Positions 1 to 12,980 of a stretch of DNA of 12,980 nt are shown one piece after another. The notes below the pieces were generated by a model. It was not told where the DNA came from and did not search any database. It saw nothing but the letters and a program-made list of their open reading frames with translations. This stretch comes from Armatimonadota bacterium (GTDB taxonomy: Bacteria > Armatimonadota > Armatimonadia > Armatimonadales > Armatimonadaceae): positions 1 to 12,980 of the forward strand of contig JAYULM010000233.1 of the NCBI GenBank assembly GCA_043763605.1, in the 5' to 3' direction. The stretch's first letter is position 1. Every line of letters starts with the position of its first letter. The position numbers and the translations under genes are program-made.

Positions 1-479
1 GCGCGATCAGGGACTTACAGCACCGGACGGACATTGTGCAGTCGTTCTTCCGAATGGCTGGTTTAGAAACTTAACGACGGATCAATAAGGATGAAGAACT
101 GAGATAGACAATCAACGCTGACGAGTAGGATGAAAGGCGGCTCGTCGAAAATACGGTCAATTCAAACTGACTTGTGTTGTCTATGCAGGATTTCGCGCCC
201 GCCGTACCCGGTTCATTCGCGGTAAAAATGTTTTCGTGGTCGGGATGATCTACCAGGCAAACCCCTTACACAACCGAAGCAAAATCGAAGATTTTTGAGA
301 GTTATAGCCAGGGCACTCATGCCCCGGTAACTCCGCCCCATCTACCGCGTCCTCAAGAATCCTCGTATCGTATACACGTGCGGCAATCCTCCGAGGCGCA
401 CACCGTGCTCGCCGCTCGCGACGCAATCCGCCACATATACGGGAACCCCGCCGCGCGTCCCGTGCGGCTGACCGAGTGC

Positions 480-887
480 CTAGTTCGCGTGCGTCACCGT
501 CCACCGCTTGCCGTCCGCCGACACGTGCTCCACATACGCGACGTGCCCATACGGGTTGCCGTCCCACGCGTCCAGCACCATCACGGAACCTGCGGTAGGG
601 GTGTCGGACCGCGTCGCGTTCGTCACCTTCTTCGTCCAGTGGCGGGCGTGCCTGCCGGAATCGGTGTCGAAGCGCAGCCACCAGCCGTCGTCCGCCGCGC
701 GAACACAGGCGTACCAGGTACATTCGCCTTTTGGGAGCGGGCGGCGCATCCAGGAAAGGTTCGCGTCACGCTCCGGCAGTACGCGGTTGCGCAACCGTTG
801 CCAGGCATTCGGGACCATTAGCAACGTCACCAGAACCAGCACCGCAAGCGATGCAGTACCCATCCCGACGGAACGCGACCATTTCAT
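480..887 (-). CDS. Small membrane-anchored CHAP-domain protein (cysteine/histidine-dependent amidohydrolase/peptidase, probable cell-wall amidase or peptidase)
   Basis: 135-aa ORF. N-terminal hydrophobic anchor (ASLAVLVLVTLLMVP). The segment GECTWYACVR carries the CHAP catalytic-Cys signature (C-T-W-[FY]). The downstream GHVAYVEHVSADG carries the conserved His segment. Stop TAG read from 482 to 480 on the minus strand. GC-rich coding composition contrasts with the flanking lower-GC DNA. Confidence 0.6.
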   Translation of the reverse strand: MKWSRSVGMGTASLAVLVLVTLLMVPNAWQRLRNRVLPERDANLSWMRRPLPKGECTWYACVRAADDGWWLRFDTDSGRHARHWTKKVTNATRSDTPTAGSVMVLDAWDGNPYGHVAYVEHVSADGKRWTVTHAN

Positions 888-1244
888 ACCGGTAGGACAC
901 GCGACAAGTGAGGGTAGTTACACTGGGGGTTCCGGAGTGTAAATCCACGCGCGCTGAGAACTGGGCGCACGAGTAATCAGGCGACAACTCTTCCCCTGCC
1001 CGGTTCTTGCCTCTCATTCACAGGTACGTGTGACGCATTTTAACTCGACTCAGTGTGCAGGCAAGATCGGAGTCAGCGTCAGGTAAACTTAACGCCATAA
1101 CGGGATAGCATACTGCGTTTAGAAGCCATCGTTCCCGCCATTCGAAAGAGTGTTGCGGGTGGATCGTGTCCTGTTCTCTGGGGCAGGTGAGGTTTTCCTG
1201 ATGACCATCGAAAGTACGAAAACATAACGCGGCAATCAACTGAC

Positions 1245-1280
1245 CGGGGGCGGGGCGCGACACCGTGCACCCCGCCCCCG
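1245..1280 (-). terminator. GC-rich hairpin downstream of the peroxidase gene. Candidate transcript 3'-end, terminator or stabilising stem-loop.
   Basis: 11-bp perfect stem cGGGGGCGGGG(1245-1255)/CCCCGCCCCCg(1270-1280) with a 14-nt loop, 49 bp downstream of the stop of the minus-strand gene 1329-3251. On the transcribed (minus) strand it is followed by gttatgttttcg, only a weak and interrupted U-tract. Assignment as an intrinsic terminator is therefore tentative. Confidence 0.35.
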
Positions 1281-1328
1281 AACAAACCACCCAACACCCC
1301 AACCGTTCAATCATCCGACACCCCCGAA

Positions 1329-3251
1329 TCACTTCACCAGCGGGTTCGTGAATTTCGGGTCGGCGGTCAGGGTGCCGTCGTTCAGGGTGCGCAGGAACGC
1401 CACCAGCGCATCGCGGTCCGCGACTGTGAGGGGCAGACGTTGCGGTTGCCCCTGTGGGTTTTTCAGGCGGTTGTCCAGAGCGGGACCGTTCTGTACGCCC
1501 CTGATGTAGTGGTCCACCGCCTGCTCCAGCGTCGCGAACCGACCGTCGTGCATGTAGGGACCGGTCAGCGCGACGTTTTTGAGCGACGGCGATTTGAAGA
1601 TGCGGGACTCGCCCGCGTCCAGACCGTTGCTGAGCGAGGTGGGGGCGAGGGCGAATGTGGGAGCCTGATGGCAGGAGTTGCAACCCGCGCCGCCCTGCCC
1701 CGGTCCGGTGGTGAACAACACCTTGCCGCGCTCTTCCTGCGCCGTATAGCCGGGAAATCGTGTTTCCAGACCCCGTTGCGGCAGGGCGGGGTTGAAGACG
1801 CGGGCGAACTCGGTATCGAAGCGGCTGTTTACCGAAACGATGCTACGTTCGTACTGCGCCAGTGCCCGCTGGATGCGGTCCTCGGTGATCGCCGGATCGC
1901 CGTACACCCAGCGGAACAGTTCGGGGTAGTACGGGAGTGTCCCCATCTTCGCCGTCACCGCGCCGAACCCGCCGTGCGCGGCGTCGAAGCCCATTTCGAC
2001 CTCGTTCTGGATCGGTTGGGTCGCCTGCGCTTCCACGCTTGCCGCCCGCTTGTCCCAGAACATCGCGCGCCCGGCGTAGAAGCGGAGATTCGCCAGACGC
2101 ATCGAGTGCGCGTCAGTGAACGCCGTCCCGTTGAAGCCCCGACTAAACCGGGCAGGGTCCACGAACCCGTTCGATTGCTGGTGGCAGGACGAGCAGGCGG
2201 TGGTGTCGTTGATGCTAAGCCGTTTGTCGAAGAAGAGCACCCTGCCCAGCGTCGCGCCCCGGTCCGTGACCGGGTTGTCAACCGGGGTGTTGTCCTGTTT
2301 GCGCACCGCGTTGTCGTAGTGCGCCGGGAACGCCGGGTTCGCGTAGTCCGGCAAGTTATTCACGTCGATATTCGTGTATTCGCGCACCCCGGCGAACGGG
2401 TCGGGCGTCGCGGTCGGAGTCGGCGAGGGAATCGGCGTCGCGGTCGGCGTAGGAGTGGGCGTCGGGAGAGGCGAGGGCGTCGGCGACGGCGCGGCGGAAA
2501 CTGTGAGCGGCAGGGTCGCGGTTTTGCCGGACTCGGTTTCCGTCACGGTGACGCTCGCCGTGCCGGGGGCGGTTCCGGTGACGGTCAGACTCGCGCCGCC
2601 GGGTACTACGGCGGCAACGGATGCGGGGGAGATCCCCCACCGCCACGTCGTCGCGCCGGTCAGGATCAGATTACCCGCCGCGTCGAGCGCACTCGCCGCG
2701 AACGTCGCCGTTTGCCCGACACCGACCCCGGACGCGGACTGTGTCAGCGCAAGGCGGTCGATAGTCGAGTTCATCGTAAGGTTCAGCGCGAACGTCTGCT
2801 CGGCGACGGCTTGCGCGATCTGTGTGCCGCTCGCCTGCGGCGGTTGGGCGTCGCCCGTCGCGTCGGCGTGTGCGGTCGCTGTGACAGTGAGCGCGCCGGG
2901 CGGTAGATTGTCGAACGCGGCACCGGTCGCCGGTCGCGCGATGACCTGACTGACACGAAACCCGGTGGCGTTCGTGATCGTGACGCGGACGCTGTTCGAC
3001 GCGATGGGGACCAGACGGGTGTCTTCGGAGCGCGCGGGCCATTCTATCGACACGGTCGCGCGGGCGGTGGGCGTGGCGACGGTGGGTGCGGCGGTAGTGG
3101 GGGCAACGACGACCGGTACGCCGCTCCCCGGATTACCGCCTCCACTCCCGCCGCCGCCGCAACCGGCGGCGATAAAGGCGATCCCGACGGGAAGCAGGAG
3201 CGCGGCGAGAACGGTGAGTGGGACCGGGATTTGTGCGGGGAATGTTTTCAT
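1329..3251 (-). CDS. Lipoprotein with N-terminal Big_2 (bacterial Ig-like) domain, Pro/Thr-rich linker and C-terminal di-haem cytochrome c peroxidase (CCP/MauG family) domain
   Basis: 640 aa. Signal peptide with lipobox IAAG|C followed by Gly/Ser-rich tether. Residues about 165-250 (LTQSASGVGVGQTATFAASALDAAGNLILTGATTWRW...SVTVTETESGKTATLPLTV) look like a Big_2 fold. PT linker PSPTPSPLPTPTPTPTATPIPSPTPTATP. Two haem-binding CxxCH motifs (CSSCH and CNSCH). Di-haem CCP-like blocks: GATLGRVLFFDKRLS upstream of the first motif, LPYYPELFRWVYGDPAITEDRIQRALAQYERS between motifs, and C-terminal YMHDGRFATLEQAVDHY ... DRDALVAFLRTLND. Confidence 0.8.
   Translation of the reverse strand: MKTFPAQIPVPLTVLAALLLPVGIAFIAAGCGGGGSGGGNPGSGVPVVVAPTTAAPTVATPTARATVSIEWPARSEDTRLVPIASNSVRVTITNATGFRVSQVIARPATGAAFDNLPPGALTVTATAHADATGDAQPPQASGTQIAQAVAEQTFALNLTMNSTIDRLALTQSASGVGVGQTATFAASALDAAGNLILTGATTWRWGISPASVAAVVPGGASLTVTGTAPGTASVTVTETESGKTATLPLTVSAAPSPTPSPLPTPTPTPTATPIPSPTPTATPDPFAGVREYTNIDVNNLPDYANPAFPAHYDNAVRKQDNTPVDNPVTDRGATLGRVLFFDKRLSINDTTACSSCHQQSNGFVDPARFSRGFNGTAFTDAHSMRLANLRFYAGRAMFWDKRAASVEAQATQPIQNEVEMGFDAAHGGFGAVTAKMGTLPYYPELFRWVYGDPAITEDRIQRALAQYERSIVSVNSRFDTEFARVFNPALPQRGLETRFPGYTAQEERGKVLFTTGPGQGGAGCNSCHQAPTFALAPTSLSNGLDAGESRIFKSPSLKNVALTGPYMHDGRFATLEQAVDHYIRGVQNGPALDNRLKNPQGQPQRLPLTVADRDALVAFLRTLNDGTLTADPKFTNPLVK
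2397..2492 (-). repeat. Low-complexity Pro/Thr/Ser linker-coding repeat inside the peroxidase gene
   Basis: DNA shows reiterated ggcgtcgg / gtcggcg units. Translation on the minus strand is (P-[TS])n, residues about 254-285 of the 640-aa protein. Typical flexible inter-domain linker, not a CRISPR or mobile repeat. Confidence 0.7.
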
Positions 3252-3297
3252 GGCTTTTCTTCGGGCAAACTCGTCTGTGTTGCGGCAACGATGCCGG

Positions 3298-3484
3298 GGG
3301 CGATGGTTCGGGCGTTGATCGGACGGTGAACCGTTCCGCTGGGAGCCTTCGGCTGTAGACGCTTCGCGTCAGGGAGTCGTTAGGCTGTCGCACGAACCGT
3401 CTGCCTCCGGTGACGCGAAGCGTCTACAGCCGAAGGCTCCCAGCGGAACGGTTCACCGTCCGATCAACGCCCGAACCATCGCCC
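3298..3484. repeat. Perfect inverted repeat: two 74-nt arms (3298-3371 and 3411-3484) separated by a 39-nt non-palindromic spacer. Giant hairpin/cruciform element in the intergenic region.
   Basis: I reverse-complemented arm 2 (tgacgcgaagcgtctacagccgaaggctcccagcggaacggttcaccgtccgatcaacgcccgaaccatcgccc). It is identical over 74/74 nt to arm 1 (gggcgatggttcgggcgttgatcggacggtgaaccgttccgctgggagccttcggctgtagacgcttcgcgtca). Spacer is gggagtcgttaggctgtcgcacgaaccgtctgcctccgg. The element lies in the 322-bp gap between the stop of the deacetylase gene (3574) and the start of the peroxidase gene (3251). Confidence 0.95.
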
Positions 3485-3573
3485 GTGTAGCAGGCTATCG
3501 CCCGATACTGAAGAGTTGCTGAAGGCGGCACGCTATCTTCGCCGAAGGGGAAAATGCCGGTCGCGAAGACGGC

Positions 3574-4581
3574 TCAGAGGAGCGCGAATCGGTAGCCGCG
3601 ATTGCGCAGTCCGGCGAGAAGGTCGGGCAGGGCGGCGCGGGTGTCGGCGACGGCGGCGTGCAGGGCGATCACCGCACCGGGGCGGGCGGCGAACAGGACG
3701 CGGCGCGTGATCTCGCGTGCGCCGGGGCGGGAATGGTCGTAGGGGACGACGACCGGGCGGCGGGGCGACGCGGGCGTGGTGCCGTCGGCAGTGCGCAGTT
3801 CGGTGGTCCCCGGCGGGCGGTACAGGGTCGGGCGGACGCCGGTTATCGTGCGCAAAAGATCGGCAGAGCGGGCGAGACCGGGGCGGCTTCCGTCGTGGTC
3901 CCAGGAGTGCATTTGCAGGCGGTGTCCTTCGTGCGCGGCGCGGCGGGCGAGGTTCGCGCCGACGCGGTGGGTCAGGTGTTCCGCGATGCAGAAAAACGTC
4001 GCGGGGGCGGCTTCCCGGCGCAGGATGTCCAATAATCCTTCATCCGGCGACCGTTCTACGCCGGAAGGCGGAAGCGTCGGGAAGTCGTCGAACGTCAGGA
4101 AGATGTCGCCGGAAAAATCGGACGCCGCCGGGGGGCGTTCGGTAGCGAGGCGGCGCAGGCGGGATTCGAGTTCGTCGGTGCGTACGATCCCCTGCCGCGT
4201 CCAGTCGATCATACCGTGCGCGTCCACGACCACGGTCCACGGTACCGCGCGCAGCCCCAGCCCCGCGCTGACCCGCCCGCCGGCATCAAGGAGAACGCTT
4301 TCTTCCGCCGCGCCGCCGCCACCGGGGAACCGTTCCGCCCAGCGTCCGTCCACGCTGATCGTCCGGTAGTCAATCGGTAGCCCGCGCAGGTTGTGCCGCA
4401 CGACGGCGAGGCGGCGGCTCTGCTCGCGCCATGTGTCGCACCACAGAGCGCAGAAGGACAGCACGGAAACCTGCCCCGGTCGCCAGGTTTGCGGGCGCGC
4501 GCCGCCGTACGGAAGCAGGGTGAACGCGGCGACGCGGTCGCCGGGACCGGACACGCGCGGGGGCGTCGTCGGCGGTTTCAC
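3574..4581 (-). CDS. Fusion protein: N-terminal thioredoxin-like (TlpA/redoxin-like, degenerate CxxC) domain + C-terminal NodB-type polysaccharide deacetylase domain
   Basis: 335 aa. N-terminal VAAFTLLPYGG...GQVSVLSFCALWCDTWREQ resembles the redoxin/TlpA motif (F.a.WC..C) but reads C-D-T-W (single Cys). C-terminal half has NodB motifs in canonical order: TFDDF (MT1 Asp-Asp), HSWDH (MT2 His-His), YRPPGTT (MT3 RxPxG), IALHAAV (MT5 LxH). Start is GTG at 4581-4579, overlapping the TGA stop of the upstream A2M gene (GTGA), which implies translational coupling. No obvious signal peptide. Confidence 0.7.
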   Translation of the reverse strand: MKPPTTPPRVSGPGDRVAAFTLLPYGGARPQTWRPGQVSVLSFCALWCDTWREQSRRLAVVRHNLRGLPIDYRTISVDGRWAERFPGGGGAAEESVLLDAGGRVSAGLGLRAVPWTVVVDAHGMIDWTRQGIVRTDELESRLRRLATERPPAASDFSGDIFLTFDDFPTLPPSGVERSPDEGLLDILRREAAPATFFCIAEHLTHRVGANLARRAAHEGHRLQMHSWDHDGSRPGLARSADLLRTITGVRPTLYRPPGTTELRTADGTTPASPRRPVVVPYDHSRPGAREITRRVLFAARPGAVIALHAAVADTRAALPDLLAGLRNRGYRFALL

Positions 4582-7500
4582 GGCGTTTTGTCCTCTTTCG
4601 GGGCATCACGAACGTCCAACACCTGCGCCGCGCTCCCGCCGCGCACCGCCGGGCGGCGGATCAACTCGCCGGTCGCGGGCAGTGCCATCAACATGCCCTC
4701 CGACTCGGACCGCAGGTAATAGCGGAACGTGACCGGCTCCGAACCGTTCACCGGCAGATAGTGGAACAGGGCACCGTCGCGCACCTCCTCGCGGGCGTTC
4801 CCGCCGCGCTCGGAGTCCACGAACTCGAACCCCGCCGGGAGCGGTTCGATCACCTTCACCGCGTCCGCCGTTTCGTTGGGCCAGACCACCACGGTGACAC
4901 GTACCGCCGCCCCGGGGCGCAGGCGCGATGCGGGCAACACTTCGCCCCAGACGCCGTACTCGTTCTGCGACTCGAACCGGCGCAGGACGCGCATCCCGGC
5001 GGCGATCTCGGCTGTCTGCGCGCGGTAGACCAGGGCTTCAGCGGTAACGAACGCTTCCCCCGCCGTGCTCCGGGCGCGCTTCAGCGTGACCGCGTTCGCG
5101 CCGTCCTTCAACAGGTCGCGGGGCACGTTCGCCGTCAGCGGGGCGATGCTTTCGGTGCCGGGGGCGCGTTTCTCCCAGGGCACCGCGACGCCGTTGACGG
5201 TCAGCGTGAAATCGTCGGCGGACGGCATTTCGCTCCCGGTGCCGTTACCACTGTTGCCGTTGCCCTGCGCACGGCTGTATAGGAGCAGGGCGCGGATGAT
5301 GTCGGCTTCCTCGGAAGGCGTCGCTTCCGGTCTGCCCTCGCCGTCGCCGCCGTCCGGGGGGAGCAACAGCCAGCGGGCAAGCTTGGTACGGGCGGGTGCG
5401 TCGTTGCCGTCATTCAGCGCGACCAGCGTTTCCAGGGCGCGCGCCGTGGTTTCGATCACGCCCGCCCGTTGCCCCGGTCGCTCCCCGGCGGGGATGTAAG
5501 CGGTTTCCGGTCCGGCGACGCTCTGGGAGGTGATCGCCCGGGTGAATTGGCGCGCCCGGTCTTTGTTTCCGGCTTCCAGAAACCCCTTCGCCAGAATCAG
5601 CGTCGCCGCCGGGGACAGCGTCCCGGCGTTGCGGTCCGCGACTTCCGCAAGGAACGGCGCGCTCGCCGGGTCGAGCGGGGCGAGTACCGCCGCCAGATAC
5701 GCCCGCTCCTCCCACAAGCCGGTTTCGCGGTACAGCGTGTTGCCGCCGCCGATCCCGCGTTTGAGCAGGTTTTCGGGGAACGGGACGCTTGCGGGCAGGA
5801 TTCCGGGGGCGCGTTTCAGGGCGACGAGTGCCCGCATGACGCGCGCGGTGACACGGGCGTCGGCGGGGGCGTCGTCCCACCAGCCCCACGCGCCACCCGG
5901 CGTTTGACCGCGCGATAGCAGGGCGAGGGCGTCGCGCAATGCCGCCGAGTCGGCGGGCGGGGCACCGGGCGTCGCCGCGACTAACAGCAAGTCCGCCGCC
6001 GCCAGCGTCCCGTATCCCGAATTTTTATACAGCCGCGCGGCGGCAGACCGCGCCGTGGCTCCGGCTCCGCCGCGCACCGACACCCGGAACTCGGTCGCCG
6101 GTTCGATGCGCCCGGCGGGCAGATCGAGCGACACCGTGGTCTCGTCGGCGGTGCCCGACACCGCCGCCCCGACCCGCGCGGTGGTCGCGACCCCGCGCGG
6201 GCGCACCGGCACCGAAACGCGGACGCGGTCCGACAGGTCAGCGAGCGTTTCGCCCGGTCCCGGTTCCGTGGTCAGGGTTCCTTCCAGCACCGCCCGCCCG
6301 TCCGGGGCGGGGATGGCGTCTGCCGACACGCGCCACTCCACCGTCGCCTCGCCCTTCGCCGGGACAGTTACCGACTGCGCCGCGTTCTCGCCCGGCGCGG
6401 GCTGTACGCCGGTCGCGGTCAGGGAAACGCGGAACGTCCGTTCGCGGTCGGTGCGGTTGCTCACGGTACCGATCAGGGTCAGGCGGTCGCCCTGTACGAA
6501 CTGTCGCGGCGTCGCGAGCCGGAGCATCACCGGGCGCGACGATGTGACGCGGCTCAGGGTATGCCCGACCGCCGTGGAACCGGTGACGCCGAACGCGGTT
6601 GCACGCCACGCCGTCAGGTTTCCGGGCAGTTCCACGGTGGCGACGGCGTTCCCGTCTGAACCGGTGACGAGGCGGGCGTTCCAGAATGCCGTGTCGAGGA
6701 ACTTTTGCCGCACCGGGGCGACGCCGGTCGGCTCCGCGTTCTGGTACGCCCCGCCGCTGACCTCCTCCGGCGCGGACGCGGCGGTTTGTGTGTGGTTTTC
6801 GCGGTACCCCCAGAACGCCCCATAAATGTCGGGCGTGGCGTCGGGGCGCACGGCGAAGATGGCGTCATCGATCACCGCCAGCGCGACCTCGGCTCCGGCG
6901 ACCGGTGCCCCCGTTTTGCCGTCACGCGCCCGCACCGTGTAGAGCACCCGGTCGCCGGGGCGGTAGTCGTTCCGGTCCGGCGTCACCGTCAGCGCGAGGC
7001 GGCGGGAGCGGTCGGGGACCGGGAGTGGTACGCCGCCGGTCAGGAGGCGAGTATAGCGCGTCTTGCTCGCCGGGTTTTCGCGCACCGCCACCCACTGCGA
7101 CGCGGAAACGTGCGCGTTGGGAGCCATCCCGGCGGTCGCAGGCAACTTCCACGTGTACGCCGATTTTCCCGGCGGCACGACTTTGTAGGCGAACAGCGCG
7201 TTGCCCTCGACGGTGAGCAGCACGGGACGTTCGGGCTTGTTCGCGGCGAGAAACACGCTGACGGTGTCGCCGGGCTGGTACGACGGCGCGCCCAGCCGGA
7301 CGCGCACACTCGGCTCCTCCCGCTCCGCCGCCACTTTCGTGTCGGGCGCGGACACATAAAACGCGGAAACGGCGACGGCGATTCGTTTCGCGCCGTCGGT
7401 GATTGTCGCGCGCAGTTCGACCTCGCCCTCCTTCGCGGCGGGCACGGTCGCGGTCGCCTTGCCGCTCGCCGGGACCACGGCGGCGGACTGGCTGAGCACG

Positions 7501-9224
7501 CGCCAGGAAGTGGCACCGGTCTTTTCGTCGTAGACGCGTTGCCGTGTCACCAAGCTCACCCGACCGCCGACCGGGCGACCGTCCAGGTCGGACAGGCGCA
7601 ACTCCACCGGCACGACGCCGTTGAGCGGCGCGGTATAGACTTTCGTACGGATGCCGAGGCGTAGCGACGCGGCGTACACGGGCACCGAGCCGGTCGCCGT
7701 GACCTCGCGCCGTTGCCCGTCGGTAACGGTGCAGGAGATCGCGTAGGAAGCGTCGCCGATGTCGCCGCGCGTCGGAAAGGTGATGTTCGCGCGCCCTTCG
7801 GCGTCTGTGGTCACGGTATCGTCGGCGACCACGTCATCGGCGGCGTACGTATCGCGGGCGTACAGGTTTCCGTCGCCGCTGGCAAACCAGGCGGAATCGG
7901 CGGCGTCGCTACCGTTGCCGTCGCCGCTCGCGAACGCGCCGTAGTATGGGGTGGCACTGCGCCGGATCACGTAGCGCACCGTCGCACCGGGGAGCGGCGC
8001 GCCGAAGTAGTAGGTCGCCTGTACCGCGAACGTCCCGGTTTCGCCGGACAGGTACCGCTTTTTCGCGGGCGTGACCGTCGCCAGAAAGTCCGGCTTGCGG
8101 TATTCGGCGACCGTGAACGTCGCGTACGCCTTTTGCCCGTCGCGGGCGGTCAACACCAGCGAGTACGGTCCCAGTGCCCCCTGGGCGGGAATCGCGAACG
8201 ACCCGGCGACCGTGCCGAGCGGACTGCTGGTCTCCGTGGTTTGCTGCTGGACGTTGTCGCGGCTGTCGCGCACCTCGGCGGTCACGGGAACGTTCGCTTC
8301 GGTTGCGTAGCCGGTCCCTTTCGTGCGGCGCAGGATCGCCCGGTACGACACCGTCGCGCCGGGGCGGTACACCGGTCGGTCGGTCTGCAGGTGACTGACC
8401 AGGCGGTTGTCCGGGTCGTTACTGCCGAGCGAGAGCGCGGCGATGTCGGCGGGTGTGCCCGGCGTTTCCCGCGTCACGATCACGGTCTGTGTGGTGTCCG
8501 GGCGCAGTTTCACCCGGTAGATGCCTTCGGAATCAGTGCGCCCTTCGGCACTGGATTTGCCGCTCGCGCGGTCCCACAGCGTCACCTTCGCACCGGTAAC
8601 AGGTGCGCCCGTGCCGTGATCCGTCACCCACGCCAGCAACGAATCGGGTGTCCGTTTGAGCACCACGGCGAGGTTCGTAACATTGACCACCGCCCAATCC
8701 TTCTTGCCGTCGCCGCCGTTCGCGACCAGCAGGTACGTTCCCGGCGGAAGTACCGGCAGGTTGAACTGCTTGCTCCGATAAATGTCGGGCTGTTCGCGCG
8801 ACGATTTCAACTTCGGGTCGCCGACCGTGACCGGGAAAACGCGGGCAGGCTTTCCGGGCGGCAACGCGTCCGGCATCGATCCGCTGTTGCCACCGTCGTT
8901 GCCGTCGCTGTTGTTCTTTTCGCGACGGAGCATCCACCGCGCGGCATCGATCTTGTAGGCGGAAACCGTGATGTGCGCCAGGTTGCGCGTATTGACATAC
9001 AGGCGAATGGCGGGACCGGGAGCCACATCACGCTTCGTGGACAGGCGCACCTCGGTTACAGGCGACGCGACCGGCGGCGGCGGTGCCGGCTTCTGCTGCG
9101 GGGACGGGTCCGCCGCGACGCCGCCGAGGAAAAAGATTCCGAGCGTCAGGGCGAGAGCGGCGACGACACCGAAAATCATCAGGATTCGCGGCAAAAAAGG
9201 TGCTTTGGAGAGGATCGACATAGT
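4578..9224 (-). CDS. Alpha-2-macroglobulin family protein, YfaS/MagD-like size class, lacking the CxEQ thioester, with N-terminal membrane anchor or signal peptide
   Basis: The six-frame ORF runs 4578-9611. Its first 129 codons are Arg-rich, overlap the AMMECR1 gene in another frame and look non-coding. The likely start is Met130 (ATG at 9224), giving MSILSKAPFLPRILMIFGVVAALALTLGIFFLGG (hydrophobic anchor, no lipobox Cys) and about 1547 aa. A2M hallmarks: FLDTAFWNARLVTGSDGNAVATVELPGNLTAWRATAFGVT (the ...TWR... block preceding the A2M domain) followed by RPVMLRLATPRQFVQGDRLTLIGTVSNRTD (the PF00207-like ...fv.l..P.svvrGe.v.l...v.Ny segment). Many beta-rich MG-like repeats upstream and a C-terminal receptor-binding-like domain. 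At the position where GCGEQ is expected the sequence reads YKNSGYGTLAAADL (no Cys-x-Glu-Gln). No CxEQ occurs anywhere in the protein. Confidence 0.85.
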   Translation of the reverse strand, partial: TMSILSKAPFLPRILMIFGVVAALALTLGIFFLGGVAADPSPQQKPAPPPPVASPVTEVRLSTKRDVAPGPAIRLYVNTRNLAHITVSAYKIDAARWMLRREKNNSDGNDGGNSGSMPDALPPGKPARVFPVTVGDPKLKSSREQPDIYRSKQFNLPVLPPGTYLLVANGGDGKKDWAVVNVTNLAVVLKRTPDSLLAWVTDHGTGAPVTGAKVTLWDRASGKSSAEGRTDSEGIYRVKLRPDTTQTVIVTRETPGTPADIAALSLGSNDPDNRLVSHLQTDRPVYRPGATVSYRAILRRTKGTGYATEANVPVTAEVRDSRDNVQQQTTETSSPLGTVAGSFAIPAQGALGPYSLVLTARDGQKAYATFTVAEYRKPDFLATVTPAKKRYLSGETGTFAVQATYYFGAPLPGATVRYVIRRSATPYYGAFASGDGNGSDAADSAWFASGDGNLYARDTYAADDVVADDTVTTDAEGRANITFPTRGDIGDASYAISCTVTDGQRREVTATGSVPVYAASLRLGIRTKVYTAPLNGVVPVELRLSDLDGRPVGGRVSLVTRQRVYDEKTGATSWRVLSQSAAVVPASGKATATVPAAKEGEVELRATITDGAKRIAVAVSAFYVSAPDTKVAAEREEPSVRVRLGAPSYQPGDTVSVFLAANKPERPVLLTVEGNALFAYKVVPPGKSAYTWKLPATAGMAPNAHVSASQWVAVRENPASKTRYTRLLTGGVPLPVPDRSRRLALTVTPDRNDYRPGDRVLYTVRARDGKTGAPVAGAEVALAVIDDAIFAVRPDATPDIYGAFWGYRENHTQTAASAPEEVSGGAYQNAEPTGVAPVRQKFLDTAFWNARLVTGSDGNAVATVELPGNLTAWRATAFGVTGSTAVGHTLSRVTSSRPVMLRLATPRQFVQGDRLTLIGTVSNRTDRERTFRVSLTATGVQPAPGENAAQSVTVPAKGEATVEWRVSADAIPAPDGRAVLEGTLTTEPGPGETLADLSDRVRVSVPVRPRGVATTARVGAAVSGTADETTVSLDLPAGRIEPATEFRVSVRGGAGATARSAAARLYKNSGYGTLAAADLLLVAATPGAPPADSAALRDALALLSRGQTPGGAWGWWDDAPADARVTARVMRALVALKRAPGILPASVPFPENLLKRGIGGGNTLYRETGLWEERAYLAAVLAPLDPASAPFLAEVADRNAGTLSPAATLILAKGFLEAGNKDRARQFTRAITSQSVAGPETAYIPAGERPGQRAGVIETTARALETLVALNDGNDAPARTKLARWLLLPPDGGDGEGRPEATPSEEADIIRALLLYSRAQGNGNSGNGTGSEMPSADDFTLTVNGVAVPWEKRAPGTESIAPLTANVPRDLLKDGANAVTLKRARSTAGEAFVTAEALVYRAQTAEIAAGMRVLRRFESQNEYGVWGEVLPASRLRPGAAVRVTVVVWPNETADAVKVIEPLPAGFEFVDSERGGNAREEVRDGALFHYLPVNGSEPVTFRYYLRSESEGMLMALPATGELIRRPAVRGGSAAQVLDVRDAPKEDKTP

Positions 9225-9253
9225 TGGTGAGTTCCAGTGTTCGTCGGTCGCGG

Positions 9254-9892
9254 TCAGCCGCGAAACCGCCGGGCGACGATGCGCCACAGGCGGCAGGAGG
9301 AATCGTTCGGTACGCCCGCTTTTTTGTACGCCCAGCGGAGTCGGGTCGCCGGGTCGCGCCCTTCGTACGGAAGTACCACGCCGGTGCGGCTCCCGGATTC
9401 GAGCGCGAGTCCGTCGGCGGGCGTGAGCGTCAGGGCTTCCCCGCGCCCGACCGGTTCGAGTCGTTCGATCACCGTCACCGTCACCCGGAACCGGGACAGG
9501 TCGGCGGGCGTCAGCGGGCAGTAGCGCGGGTCGGCGGTGGCGGCGGAGCGCGCGGCGGTCTGCACCTCTGCGCGCAGGGTGGCGAAGCGCGGACGCAGTG
9601 TCCCCCGGCACCCGATCACGGTTCCGTCCCGCTCAATGGTCACGAACACGCCCCGCGCGGGCGTCTCCGGCGACACCGCATCGTGCGCAGGCGCGGATAC
9701 GGAACCAGTGACGGCATTGCGAACCGCATCCCGGGCGAGCGCGATCAGCGCGGCGTCCGGCGTGGGCAGGGGCGAGGCGTTCTGCGCGCGCACCCCGGTA
9801 TCCGCCGCCGCGAGGACGGAAGCAGTAGTTAGAAGCCCGGTGACGATTACGACGCCTCGGAATCGGGCTCTATTCTTGCCATGCGGTTTCAT
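9254..9892 (-). CDS. AMMECR1-domain protein with N-terminal secretion signal
   Basis: 212 aa. N-terminus MKPHGKNRARFRGVVIVTGLLTTASVLAAADTG has a basic n-region plus hydrophobic h-region, a signal-peptide look. AMMECR1 blocks: RGVFVTIERDGTVIGCRGTL (compare the family's .aFVTl....LRGCIG block, with R in place of I here), DPRYCPLTPADLSRFRVTVTVIERLEPV (DPRF.Pl...El..l.ieVSvLs block), DGLALESGSRTGVVLPYEGRD and RLRWAYKKAGVP (C-terminal blocks). 29 bp upstream of the A2M start, same strand. Confidence 0.7.
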   Translation of the reverse strand: MKPHGKNRARFRGVVIVTGLLTTASVLAAADTGVRAQNASPLPTPDAALIALARDAVRNAVTGSVSAPAHDAVSPETPARGVFVTIERDGTVIGCRGTLRPRFATLRAEVQTAARSAATADPRYCPLTPADLSRFRVTVTVIERLEPVGRGEALTLTPADGLALESGSRTGVVLPYEGRDPATRLRWAYKKAGVPNDSSCRLWRIVARRFRG

Positions 9893-10142
9893 TGGCGACA
9901 GTTTAACACATGACTAACGCTGTAGTCAATAGGGGCGTATGGATATTTTCTGGTTTCGATTGAGCATAGCCGAACGAGATGATTGTGGACTGGTTCCACG
10001 CGATCCGCCTCCGATCTCATATCGACGAGTGCCCCCGGTCCAATCGTAACACCGAGCTCCCCACAATTCCGAAAAAATAATTTATCGCGATGATGCCACC
10101 TGCGAAAAGTCGGCGGGTCTGACCTTTTGGAGAACCAATAGG
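9893..10142. promoter_or_regulatory. Divergent intergenic region: lower-GC, should carry promoters for the minus-strand AMMECR1-A2M-deacetylase operon and the plus-strand NfeD-flotillin operon
   Basis: 250 bp without an ORF, visibly AT-richer (for example gaaaaaataatttatcgcgatgatg). Flanked by divergently oriented start codons at 9892 (minus) and 10143 (plus). GGAG at 10129-10132 sits 10 nt upstream of ATG 10143. I could not call -35/-10 boxes confidently. Confidence 0.4.
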
Positions 10143-10877
10143 ATGACGGGTTCGATCTATTTACAGTGGCATTATCTTGCTTTCATAGCACCGATGGCGG
10201 CATCGGCAACCCTGCTGATCCTGTCGGGCATGCGGACCGGCAAACATCGATCACACCAGCGCGGTGGACACATGGCGCGATCCGCCGGGAGCGCGAGAAG
10301 CGTCAGGCACGCATCCCCCCCCGCCAAACACGCGGTTCGGACCACATCCGGGGCAAAACGAAATGGCACCACTCCGGAAGCCGCGAACACCCACGGTGTC
10401 AGCGAGTTTTTTTTCGCGGTTACGGGATTCAATCGATTGTCGCCGCTGTTACTCGCACAGATGTTCTTGTTATATGGCGGTCTGGCAGGCTTCTGGGCTA
10501 ACCGGCTACTACTCCCGAACATCGATACCCCCACGCTCGCACAATGGCTGCCCTGCCTGGGAATCGCAATCGGCGTGGGCACTCTGGGAGCACGCTTATC
10601 CGGCGAATTAATCGCCCGCCTGATGCCGCAAGACGCTTCGTCGGTCACGCGGAGCGATGGGCTGATCGGGCTTACCGGCAAAGTGGTCTTCCCGATCACC
10701 CAAACCAGTGGGCGTATCCACGTTTACGATACGTTCGGCACACTGCACGATCAGACGTGTCGTCTGGCACCCGGACAAGCCCCGATAGATCGGGGCGGTT
10801 TCGCGTTCATTTCCGACCGCGACCCGTCCGGGCATTTTTTAGTTGAGGAAGCGGCGGAGCCAATCCGACTTCGCTGA
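10143..10877 (+). CDS. NfeD-like membrane protein (membrane helices + C-terminal OB-fold beta-barrel), partner of the downstream flotillin
   Basis: 244 aa. Hydrophobic helices YLAFIAPMAASATLLILSGM, LSPLLLAQMFLLYGGLAGFWANRLLL, LAQWLPCLGIAIGVGTLGARL. C-terminal DGLIGLTGKVVFPITQTSGRIHVYDTFGTLHDQTCRLAPGQAPIDRGGFAFISDRDPSGHFLVEE matches the NfeD/YuaF OB-fold pattern (G..G.v....sGrv.v..e.w.a.s...i..G..v.V...dg..L.V). Stop TGA 10875-10877 lies immediately upstream of the flotillin gene. The true start could be an internal Met (for example Met44 or Met107). The basic low-complexity loop between helix 1 and 2 is atypical. Confidence 0.6.
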   Translation: MTGSIYLQWHYLAFIAPMAASATLLILSGMRTGKHRSHQRGGHMARSAGSARSVRHASPPAKHAVRTTSGAKRNGTTPEAANTHGVSEFFFAVTGFNRLSPLLLAQMFLLYGGLAGFWANRLLLPNIDTPTLAQWLPCLGIAIGVGTLGARLSGELIARLMPQDASSVTRSDGLIGLTGKVVFPITQTSGRIHVYDTFGTLHDQTCRLAPGQAPIDRGGFAFISDRDPSGHFLVEEAAEPIRLR

Positions 10878-10913
10878 TGGTTGGAGGTGAATAGCACTAA
10901 GGAGGCTATGGAT

Positions 10914-12941
10914 ATGGGATTCTTAATCCTGTTGTTTGGGGCGGTCGTTATCGTCGTCGGCATGCTGGGAATCGTCCCCGGAACAGGGGGCGTGGTACTC
11001 ACCGTCATCGGGGCGGCAATGATGGTCGCGGGCGTTCCTGCCGGACTCATGACGTTCTACCGGCGCACCAGCGCGGACCAGGCGTTTGTGCGGACGGGGC
11101 ACGGCGGGAGTCTGGTCGTGCTCGACAACGGCGCACTGGTCATTCCGGGGTTGCACCGGTTACTGGAAATCAACCTGCGCACCATGAAACTCGGGGTAAA
11201 CCCGCGCGGCCAGAACGCGCTCATCACGCGCGACAACTTGCGGGCGAACGTCCTCGCGCAGTTCTACATTCGGGTCCAGGCGGACTCCGAGCATATCTTA
11301 AACGCCGCCCGGTCGTTGGGGGAGTCGTCGGTGAACGCCGAGGCGGTGGAGGGGCTGGTATCGGAGAAGCTGGTTTCCGCCCTGCGTGCCATCGCGTCGC
11401 AGATGGACCTGTTCGAGATCCATACCAAGCGCGACGAATTCGCCGAGCGGGTCAAAGAGCATGTCAAGTCGGACCTGGAATCGAACGGTCTGTTGTTAGA
11501 ATCGGTCACGATATCAGAACTGGACCAGACCGACCCCGCCGACCTGTCTGACGACAACGTCTTCGACGCACAGGGGAAACGTAAGATCACCGAGATCACG
11601 GCGGCGGCGGCGGTCGAGCGGAACGCGTTGGAGCGGAACGCGGAGCAGGCACGAAAACTCAAGGACGTCGAAACCCGCCAGCAGATACTGGGACTGGAAC
11701 GGATGCAGGCGGAATCCGAAGCGCAACAGGCGACCGAAATCGCCAAAGTCCGCGCCGACAAGGAGCGCGAGTCGCAGGAGGCGGTGATCACCCAGCAACG
11801 GCAGGTCGAACTCGCCAAGATCGAAAAAGACAAACAACTCCAAGCGCAGGAGATCGGTCGCCAGCAAGCGGTCGAAACGCTCCGGGTGCAACAGGAACAG
11901 GCGGTGCAGGCGGCGGGCATCGAAAAAGAAAAGGCGGTCAGTCTCGCCGGACTGATGAAGCAGATCGCTGTCGCCGAGCAGGAGACGGCACGGGCGAAGG
12001 CGGAAGAAGCCACGCTGGTCGCGTCCGCCGAGCGTGAACGTGCCAGCCAGCAAGTCACCACGGTCACGCAACTCGCGGAAGCGGAACGCGACGCTAACAA
12101 GAAACTGATCGCGTCGCGCCAGGAGATCGAGCAGGCGAAACTGCGCCAGCAGACCACCGCCGATGTCGAGGCGTACTCGCGGATCAAGGAGGCGGACGCC
12201 GAACGCGAATCGTCGGAAATGCAGGCGCAGGCGAAACTTCAACTTGCCGAAGCCGAAGCACACTCGCGGGAAATGATCGCGAAAGGCGAACGCGCCCAGC
12301 AGATGGTCGCGGTGGAAGTCGCCCGCGAACAGGTGGACGTGGAGCAGGCGCAGGTTGCGGTCGAGCGACAACAACTGGAAAACCGGCAGCAGTTCGCCGA
12401 AGCCGGTATCCATTTAGAGATACAGCGGCTGAGCATTCAGGCGAACCGCGATGTTCAGATCGAATTCGCGAAATCGCTGGCGAACTTCCTGGCGTCGGGG
12501 CGTATGACGCTGTACGGCACGCCCGAAACGGCGACCATGATGCTTGACAACATGGCGAAAGGGTTCGGTTTGCGGTCCATGGTCGAGGGCTTCGTGAACG
12601 GATCGGGCGGAGACGGAACAGGGAAAATTCCGGCGACTAACGGCACGACGGCGACCGCTGAACTGGTGCCGGCCACCAACGGCAACGGCACCCACGCCTC
12701 GGGCGACGCTGTCGGGGCGTTGCTCAGTCAGGTCGGCGGTCTGTTGCAACCGGCAATCACGCGTCTGACCAACGGTTCGGCAAATAGCAAGCCTGCGCCG
12801 TCGGCGGACGAGGTCGCGCGACGGCTCGCGGACGACCCGGCACTACTCGCCGCGCTCCGAAACGCCCTCGCAACGGCGCAAACAGATGAGGAAGAAGAGG
12901 CGACGCCCATTAAAGAAGTGGCGGGAATGACGCGCAAATAA
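10914..12941 (+). CDS. Flotillin-like SPFH/band-7 protein (YqiK/FloA type) with a long Glu/Ala/Gln-rich coiled coil and a Gly/Thr/Asn-rich C-terminal tail
   Basis: The ORF opens at TTG 10881, but a strong Shine-Dalgarno AAGGAGG at 10899-10905 lies 8 nt upstream of ATG 10914 (MGFLILLFGAVVIVVGMLGIV..., N-terminal membrane hairpin). SPFH core: ADQAFVRTGHGGSLVVLDNGALVIPGLHRLLEINLRTMKLGVNPRGQNALITRDNLRANVLAQFYIRV. Then about 300 aa of EA/Q heptad-like repeats (flotillin coiled-coil domain). C-terminal tail is NGTTATAELVPATNGNGTHASGD... Confidence 0.85.
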   Translation: MGFLILLFGAVVIVVGMLGIVPGTGGVVLTVIGAAMMVAGVPAGLMTFYRRTSADQAFVRTGHGGSLVVLDNGALVIPGLHRLLEINLRTMKLGVNPRGQNALITRDNLRANVLAQFYIRVQADSEHILNAARSLGESSVNAEAVEGLVSEKLVSALRAIASQMDLFEIHTKRDEFAERVKEHVKSDLESNGLLLESVTISELDQTDPADLSDDNVFDAQGKRKITEITAAAAVERNALERNAEQARKLKDVETRQQILGLERMQAESEAQQATEIAKVRADKERESQEAVITQQRQVELAKIEKDKQLQAQEIGRQQAVETLRVQQEQAVQAAGIEKEKAVSLAGLMKQIAVAEQETARAKAEEATLVASAERERASQQVTTVTQLAEAERDANKKLIASRQEIEQAKLRQQTTADVEAYSRIKEADAERESSEMQAQAKLQLAEAEAHSREMIAKGERAQQMVAVEVAREQVDVEQAQVAVERQQLENRQQFAEAGIHLEIQRLSIQANRDVQIEFAKSLANFLASGRMTLYGTPETATMMLDNMAKGFGLRSMVEGFVNGSGGDGTGKIPATNGTTATAELVPATNGNGTHASGDAVGALLSQVGGLLQPAITRLTNGSANSKPAPSADEVARRLADDPALLAALRNALATAQTDEEEEATPIKEVAGMTRK

Positions 12942-12980
12942 CCGCGTCCCACACAGTCGCGCCGCGCGGGTAACTCCCCC

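Follow-up and report, generated by a model that had tools for sequence, protein, structure and literature searches.

An AMMECR1-fold protein with a predicted signal peptide is the first member of a conserved alpha-2-macroglobulin cassette in Armatimonadota

Two contexts only are recognised for the bacterial alpha-2-macroglobulins (A2Ms) in the study of the Mag complex (PMC5764988). In type I, represented by ECAM/YfhM and the Salmonella A2M, the protease trap is encoded together with the peptidoglycan enzyme PBP1C. In type II, represented by MagD of Pseudomonas aeruginosa, the A2M lacks the thioester and is accompanied by small accessory proteins, most of them signal-bearing, which bind and stabilise it at the inner membrane; MagA, MagB and MagF each form 1:1 complexes with MagD, and MagB is required for MagD stability in the periplasm (PMC5764988). 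Here we describe a 12,980-nucleotide stretch of DNA from an Armatimonadota bacterium (GenBank assembly GCA_043763605.1, contig JAYULM010000233.1, positions 1 to 12,980 of the forward strand; hereafter the window), in which a thioester-less A2M gene is preceded by a gene for an AMMECR1-like protein with a predicted signal peptide. We lean, with moderate confidence, towards the view that this protein is a periplasmic accessory partner dedicated to a membrane-anchored A2M. From its sequence features, the locus may represent a third type of bacterial A2M operon, in which the accessory protein, predicted to be exported, has a fold described elsewhere from cytoplasmic proteins.

The features of the AMMECR1-like gene are as follows.

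9254 to 9892, minus strand: AMMECR1-like open reading frame (precursor), 212 residues
9275 to 9742, minus strand: AMMECR1 domain (Pfam PF01871), residues 51-206
9602 to 9613, minus strand: G-C-R-G, the clade's form of the family LRGCIG block, containing Cys95 (from the alignment of homologues)

The frame runs from the ATG at 9892 to the stop at 9254, as given by the list of open reading frames and their translations, and an identical gene is called on the surrounding scaffold, a 25,973 bp metagenome contig (ENA ERZ28573671; L001). Its product is a true AMMECR1-fold protein. The match to PF01871 scores 88 bits, where the gathering cut-off is 25 (E 6.4e-25), and covers positions 2-159 of the 168 in the profile. 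The AlphaFold (AF2) model has a pLDDT of ~97 over residues 45-212 and finds AMMECR1 structures as its only fold matches, and a profile of the clade retrieves three solved AMMECR1 structures (1ZQ7, 1WSC and 1VAJ) by sequence. An earlier note on this DNA, made from the letters alone, had proposed both an AMMECR1 domain and a retained family cysteine, and both proposals are borne out. The LRGCIG block reads V-I-G-C-R-G here (residues 92-97, within TVIGCRG at 91-97), with Leu, Arg and Ile replaced and the Cys kept; in an alignment of 37 homologues neither Cys95 nor Gly97 varies, and the 21 closer ones keep the whole of GCRG without exception. The alignments show that the Asp-Pro-Arg and Leu-Pro family blocks are kept as well. 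Because these blocks and the Cys are retained, the comparison suggests that the AMMECR1 pocket is still in use, and we predict that it works without a MEMO or radical-SAM enzyme.

The protein nevertheless differs from canonical AMMECR1. In PH0010 (PDB 1VAJ) and MM0484 (1ZQ7) the domain begins within a few residues of the start, whereas the window protein has a signal-like extension. In addition, the clade has GCRG in place of LRGCIG, and it carries a VVLPWEG[KR]DP..RL.WAY.KAG block and a C-terminal ARRFRG of its own.

The AMMECR1-like gene is the first of a conserved cassette, in which it is followed by an A2M gene and by a gene for a thioredoxin-like/CE4 deacetylase protein.

4578 to 9221, minus strand: A2M (Pfam), 1547 residues, second gene of the cassette, starting at ATG 9221, 32 nucleotides downstream of the AMMECR1-like gene
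9111 to 9185, minus strand: N-terminal hydrophobic stretch of the A2M, 25 residues, followed by a Pro-rich linker
3574 to 4581, minus strand: thioredoxin-fold and CE4/NodB polysaccharide deacetylase protein, 335 residues, third gene (Pfam Polysacc_deac_1; NCBIfam DsbE-like over residues 32-142)

A scan of one genome per species returned 38 related loci, 36 of them with enough flanking DNA; almost all come from metagenome-assembled genomes (MAGs) of Armatimonadota (Fimbriimonadales, Abditibacteriales, Armatimonas). In 30 of the 36 testable loci the start of the A2M gene overlaps the AMMECR1-like stop codon or follows it closely, so that the adjacency is not a matter of chance; two more loci carry the A2M gene at another place. 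The thioredoxin-like/deacetylase gene is third in about 28 loci. In a 4.72-Mb circular MAG, the same triad stands beside a divergently transcribed gene for a PBP5-type carboxypeptidase.

The window A2M contains the Pfam domains MG2, A2M_BRD (the bait region), A2M, bMG3 and bMG10, and its sequence matches in the PDB are human A2M and YfhM of Escherichia coli. A scan for cysteines and for the thioester motif found a single Cys (residue 497) and no CxEQ; the motif is likewise missing from all 30 complete A2Ms encoded directly after an AMMECR1-like gene in the genome-scan loci. The earlier note had taken the neighbouring A2M to be an exported protease trap. The adjacency and the hydrophobic N-terminus both stand, whereas the trap is one without CxEQ and, judged from its long hydrophobic stretch, its N-terminus more closely resembles a membrane anchor than a short signal that is cleaved off.

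About 45 extra residues precede the AMMECR1 domain, and they have the anatomy of a signal peptide. The N-terminus reads MKPHGKNRARFR-GVVIVTGLLTTASVLAAA-DTGVRA/QN, the slash marking the predicted cleavage point, and its parts were delimited by inspection and a simple heuristic.

9785 to 9892, minus strand: predicted Sec-type signal peptide, residues 1-36
n-region of the predicted signal peptide: MKPHGKNRARFR, with five Lys or Arg in residues 2-12
9803 to 9856, minus strand: h-region, residues 13-30, 18 uncharged, hydrophobic residues
c-region of the predicted signal peptide: DTGVRA, with predicted cleavage at VRA/Q (residues 34-37), six residues past the hydrophobic core

All the elements expected of a Sec/signal peptidase I substrate can be recognised, namely a charged n-region, an h-region of 10-20 residues and small residues at -3 and -1, and the mean Kyte-Doolittle value over residues 14-30 is 2.15. 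The closest homologues have an aligned small-x-small site before Gln (SRA/Q, SKA/Q, ARA/Q, SSA/Q, CPA/Q), and their extensions are otherwise unconserved, as signal peptides behave. When the open reading frames of the 36 related loci were re-derived from the DNA, a hydrophobic segment was found ahead of the AMMECR1 domain in 31 of 35 testable loci, and also at the N-terminus of all 32 partner A2Ms and of 23 of 30 third genes. A crude heuristic scored 60 of 81 GCRG-type proteins as signal-like, against 7 of 39 canonical GCIG types. The earlier reading of this N-terminus as signal-peptide-like thus holds, and export of the AMMECR1-like protein is well supported, if not proven; it appears to be typical of the clade, not universal. 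R-A-R-F-R in the window protein is not a twin arginine. Four relatives (P0007, P0012, P0013 and P0027) do have twin-arginine-like n-regions (IRRGIIG, ARRMVL, TRRALL and PRRLVW), and export of part of the family may be Tat-dependent.

The extension would be an artefact if the start codon had been wrongly assigned. ATG 9892 is the earliest start codon downstream of the upstream in-frame stop, the sole alternative inside the frame is a GTG at Val34, and no Shine-Dalgarno sequence is visible ahead of the ATG. A consensus scan for sigma-70-like promoters gave a single site, against 0.6 expected.

9900 to 9929, minus strand: sigma-70-like promoter match, TTGACT-18-TAAACT with an extended TG

The match sits in the only low-GC stretch of the area (GC 0.49) and ends 8 nucleotides before ATG 9892, and because of this spacing it is compatible with a leaderless mRNA; it hints, weakly, at a leaderless or near-leaderless transcript starting at or near the ATG. 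An ordinary cytoplasmic AMMECR1 protein with its true start at the GTG would account for the missing Shine-Dalgarno sequence and for the few relatives that have no hydrophobic N-terminus. It would not account for the homologue of 69% identity that begins likewise (MKPRG and MKPHG) and shares the hydrophobic stretch, for the recurrence of the extension across the related loci, for the signals carried by the partner proteins, or for a promoter-like site that fits a leaderless mRNA from ATG 9892. We therefore regard a mis-assigned start as very unlikely.

The hydrophobic segment could alternatively be an uncleaved signal anchor, which would fix the AMMECR1 domain to the periplasmic side of the inner membrane, where it might retain the A2M as MagB does. 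The h-region, at 18 residues, is fairly long, residues 8-30 form one continuous helix in the AF2 model (of low confidence, and detached from the domain), and the window A2M also appears to be anchored. Against this, VRA/Q is a classic small-x-small site, normally spaced from the h-region and matched in the alignment by those of the closest homologues, and the h-regions of many relatives, at 10-15 residues, are too short to span a membrane. A permanent tether is therefore improbable.

The third gene begins with a GTG that overlaps the A2M stop (GTGA). Its product has the deacetylase motifs TFDD, HSWDH (H-S-x-x-H) and RPP (R-P), preceded by an atypical thioredoxin-fold motif.

4440 to 4466, minus strand: F-C-A-L-W-C-D-T-W, residues 40-48 of the third gene product, preceded by Ser

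The canonical TlpA-type motif is F-W-A-x-W-C-x-x-C. The window protein retains the Cys that normally acts as nucleophile and has Trp where the resolving Cys would be expected; a further Cys is found four positions before the retained one. Orthologues share W-C-D-T-W (FCAYWCDTW, FWAFWCDTW), and the redox chemistry of the domain may be monothiol or unusual in some other way. Production of the A2M and the third gene product as one protein, through a programmed frameshift, was considered and rejected: the window and loci L002, L005 and L007 show plain stop/start overlaps (GTGA, ATGA, TAGTG), which look like coupling at the junction and not like a slippery site that they share.

The combination of AMMECR1-like protein and A2M extends well beyond these loci. 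When 1.84 billion representative proteins were searched exhaustively with a profile, 11,004 AMMECR1 relatives were found. Many of the top-scoring stand-alone relatives have clear signal peptides and fall in divergent subgroups, one with the motif LLPGEA[KR]TA and another with C-C-M-G; their sources name them as Armatimonadota, Myxococcota and Candidatus Sericytochromatia. For the LLPGEA[KR]TA subgroup, a scan of metagenome contigs gave 40 loci, 28 of them with at least 1 kb of downstream sequence. In 15 of these 28, a gene for an A2M of 1554-1724 residues follows the AMMECR1-like stop within 0-13 nucleotides or overlaps it, and most of the complete A2Ms carry CLEQ, CVEQ or CTEQ. The order VanW, AMMECR1-like, A2M with a TED domain occurs in four loci, one of them named Myxococcota; elsewhere, for example in L048 and L056, VanW lies downstream of the A2M and SpoIID upstream of the AMMECR1-like gene. 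The pair recurs also in L085-L087, L089 and L091, and in L041, where a YfaP/DUF2135-like gene, the AMMECR1-like gene and a thioester A2M gene follow one another. The earlier note had held a pairing of AMMECR1 with a protease trap to be a new context for the domain. A search for other signal-bearing homologues and their neighbourhoods does find exported relatives in several phyla, with the A2M adjoining in many loci of both sets, and full-text literature searches returned no paper in which AMMECR1 is connected with a bacterial A2M, a signal peptide or the periplasm. The window is nonetheless no one-off, the exported AMMECR1-like proteins being a sizeable metagenome set from several phyla.

The A2Ms linked to AMMECR1 score 268-436 bits among themselves, against 129-197 bits with E. 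coli YfaS and 61-151 bits with YfhM. Because they are closer to one another than to either, the AMMECR1-like/A2M pair looks like a co-inherited unit with a separate A2M lineage. The thioester appears to have been lost in the Armatimonadota branch of that lineage, since the genome-scan A2Ms have no CxEQ and the more distant AMMECR1-linked A2Ms do. A tie between the AMMECR1-like partner and the thioester was considered and rejected, the partner accompanying A2Ms with and without CxEQ alike.

Set beside the described systems, the window resembles each in part. As in the mag operon and the yfaPQSTA operon of E. coli, a thioester-less A2M is co-encoded with a small accessory protein, and the A2M is nearer to YfaS than to YfhM. 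It has the type II trait of an A2M without CxEQ. In contrast, the DUF2135, DUF2300, DUF1175 and DUF2138 neighbours of type II are absent from the window and from L001; among the related loci, a DUF2135/YfaP-like gene occurs only in L041. Many AMMECR1-linked A2Ms, unlike those of type II, retain the thioester. Homology of the AMMECR1-like clade to YfaP, YfaQ, YfaT or YfaA was tried and rejected, with an hhalign probability of at most 0.2%. The cassette also resembles type I in that a protease trap and a peptidoglycan enzyme are encoded together, but the enzyme here is a CE4 deacetylase in place of PBP1C, and at other loci VanW, SpoIID or PBP5 genes are found close by. The A2M of the window lacks CxEQ, a lipobox Cys and a neighbouring pbpC, and its 61 bits with YfhM are the lowest similarity among the comparisons made.

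On the reading that we favour, the precursor would use the Sec pathway for export, with cleavage following Ala36, leaving a mature AMMECR1-fold protein of ~176 residues in the periplasm; cultured Armatimonadota stain Gram-negative. Because the genes abut or overlap, the protein would be made in step with the A2M, as a dedicated companion inherited with it across phyla. It would act through the retained Cys-containing pocket, without a MEMO or radical-SAM enzyme, in a role analogous to that of the Mag accessory proteins, small and signal-bearing, in binding and stabilising MagD. The three genes together could then form an envelope-protection module that joins a protease trap to cell-wall modification. 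We infer, on this reading, actual export and cleavage, contact with the A2M, and a catalytic or ligand role for Cys95.

Several observations weigh against a periplasmic partner of the A2M. The third gene of the window, like those of L002, L005 and L007, has no signal peptide, while its orthologues in most other Armatimonadota loci start with a clear one. In L002, L007, L034 and L035 it is the AMMECR1-like protein that lacks a hydrophobic N-terminus while the A2M signal is kept, contrary to what would be expected of a complex confined to the periplasm. L034 and L035 being near-duplicates, signal loss amounts to about three independent cases; in all four loci it is accompanied by loss of the deacetylase signal, and the AMMECR1-like protein never loses its signal alone. 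Among the LLPGEA[KR]TA loci, 13 of the 28 testable ones have no A2M, and some adjoin unrelated genes. In the Armatimonadota MAG L088 (7847-9639), an AMMECR1-like gene of the exported type starts within a SpoIID gene, and no A2M is nearby. Since these distant loci do without an A2M and L088 pairs with SpoIID alone, the AMMECR1-like fold may have its role at the cell wall and not with the A2M. Finally, the biochemical function of AMMECR1 is unassigned, and the family is among the top-priority uncharacterised archaeal proteins (PMC6393860).

Fused forms of the exported type, present in three of the 13 loci without an A2M, have a bearing on the same question, with the AMMECR1 domain as the C-terminal part of proteins of 560-620 residues.

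L059, 6642 to 8498: exported-type AMMECR1 fusion gene
L065, 6792 to 8567: exported-type AMMECR1 fusion gene
L075, 6912 to 8600: exported-type AMMECR1 fusion gene

An N-terminal region of ~400 residues precedes the domain; in L059 and L075 (and in L076) tblastn shows it to be weakly similar to E. coli YfaQ (DUF2300), a protein of the yfaS/mag operons, and no A2M lies within 8 kb of the fusion genes in L059, L065 and L075. These fusions, the pairing with an overlapping SpoIID gene in L088, and the recurrent neighbours (CE4 deacetylase, VanW, SpoIID and PBP5-type carboxypeptidase) would fit an exported AMMECR1-fold protein that acts on peptidoglycan or on a lipid-linked (undecaprenyl) precursor, the A2M being a co-regulated neighbour in a cell-wall maintenance island. 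The joint loss of signals with the deacetylase would likewise fit a common substrate on both faces of the membrane. Burroughs et al. (2019, J Biol Chem) are reported to tie Memo-AMMECR1 contexts to isoprenoid or nucleotide-base modification. The tightest and commonest link is nevertheless with the A2M, abutting or overlapping across at least three divergent subclades, thioester-bearing and thioester-less, and the fold search found no carbohydrate- or lipid-binding relative of the AMMECR1-like protein. We consider a direct action on the cell wall rather unlikely as the main role, and retain the A2M partner as the preferred reading.

It could also be asked whether the protein is simply protein A of an AmmeMemoRadiSam system. 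Its best NCBIfam match is indeed TIGR04335, and two relatives (P0099 and P0219) are named 'AmmeMemoRadiSam system protein A' by their sources, where databases otherwise give generic names such as 'AMMECR1 domain-containing protein'. The TIGR04335 score, however, is 80.4 bits, below the curated cut-off of 99, and the 26-kb contig has no MEMO-family or radical-SAM gene; this check, which the earlier note had envisaged for the genome, covers the contig. Nor does a MEMO or radical-SAM gene stand beside the AMMECR1-like gene among the called genes listed for L085, L087, L088, L089 and L091; L086 has an unrelated radical-SAM/SPASM gene ~8 kb away. The partners are instead an A2M and cell-wall enzymes, and to our knowledge a radical-SAM partner could not function in the periplasm, which counts further against such a system. 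Thus membership is hardly credible, and because no MEMO or radical-SAM genes adjoin the signal-bearing proteins, the protein A label on A2M- or SpoIID-linked members is probably an over-annotation.

If the preferred reading is extended to the whole clade, signal-bearing AMMECR1-fold proteins might be obligate partners of a third, hitherto unrecognised A2M lineage, apart from type I with its PBP1C and type II with its mag operon, and might expose a core action of the Cys pocket on a protein or a lipid-linked cell-wall substrate. We put this forward only tentatively. Were it true, functional hypotheses would be redirected for the whole AMMECR1 family, human AMMECR1 included. A periplasmic branch would narrow the possible chemistry, as SAM, ATP and nucleic acids would not be available to it, and a universally distributed family, with solved structures and a name taken from a human disease region, would gain a testable extracytoplasmic setting. 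The picture of bacterial A2Ms would be extended as well, by an AMMECR1-linked lineage that holds thioester-bearing and thioester-less members.

The remaining genes of the window lie on either side of the cassette.

10143 to 12941, plus strand: 244-residue membrane protein, then a 686-residue SPFH/Band-7 (flotillin-like) protein, divergent from the cassette
1329 to 3251, minus strand: MauG/MbnH-like di-haem peroxidase, 640 residues, with two CxxCH motifs
480 to 887, minus strand: small CHAP-domain protein (cysteine-type peptidoglycan amidase/peptidase family; Pfam, 53 bits), downstream of the cassette and on the same strand

The peroxidase, the 244-residue protein and the SPFH protein have no counterparts beside the triad in the 38 related loci, and were rejected as parts of the cassette. 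PADLOC gave no matches to anti-phage defence systems for the three cassette proteins or the upstream 244-residue protein. The latter has no Pfam match; by its position and its beta-rich C-terminus it looks like a candidate NfeD-type partner of SPFH proteins. The N-terminus of the di-haem peroxidase (..FIAAGCGGGG) resembles that of a lipoprotein, and the protein also matches an Ig-like (Big_2) domain weakly, below the threshold.

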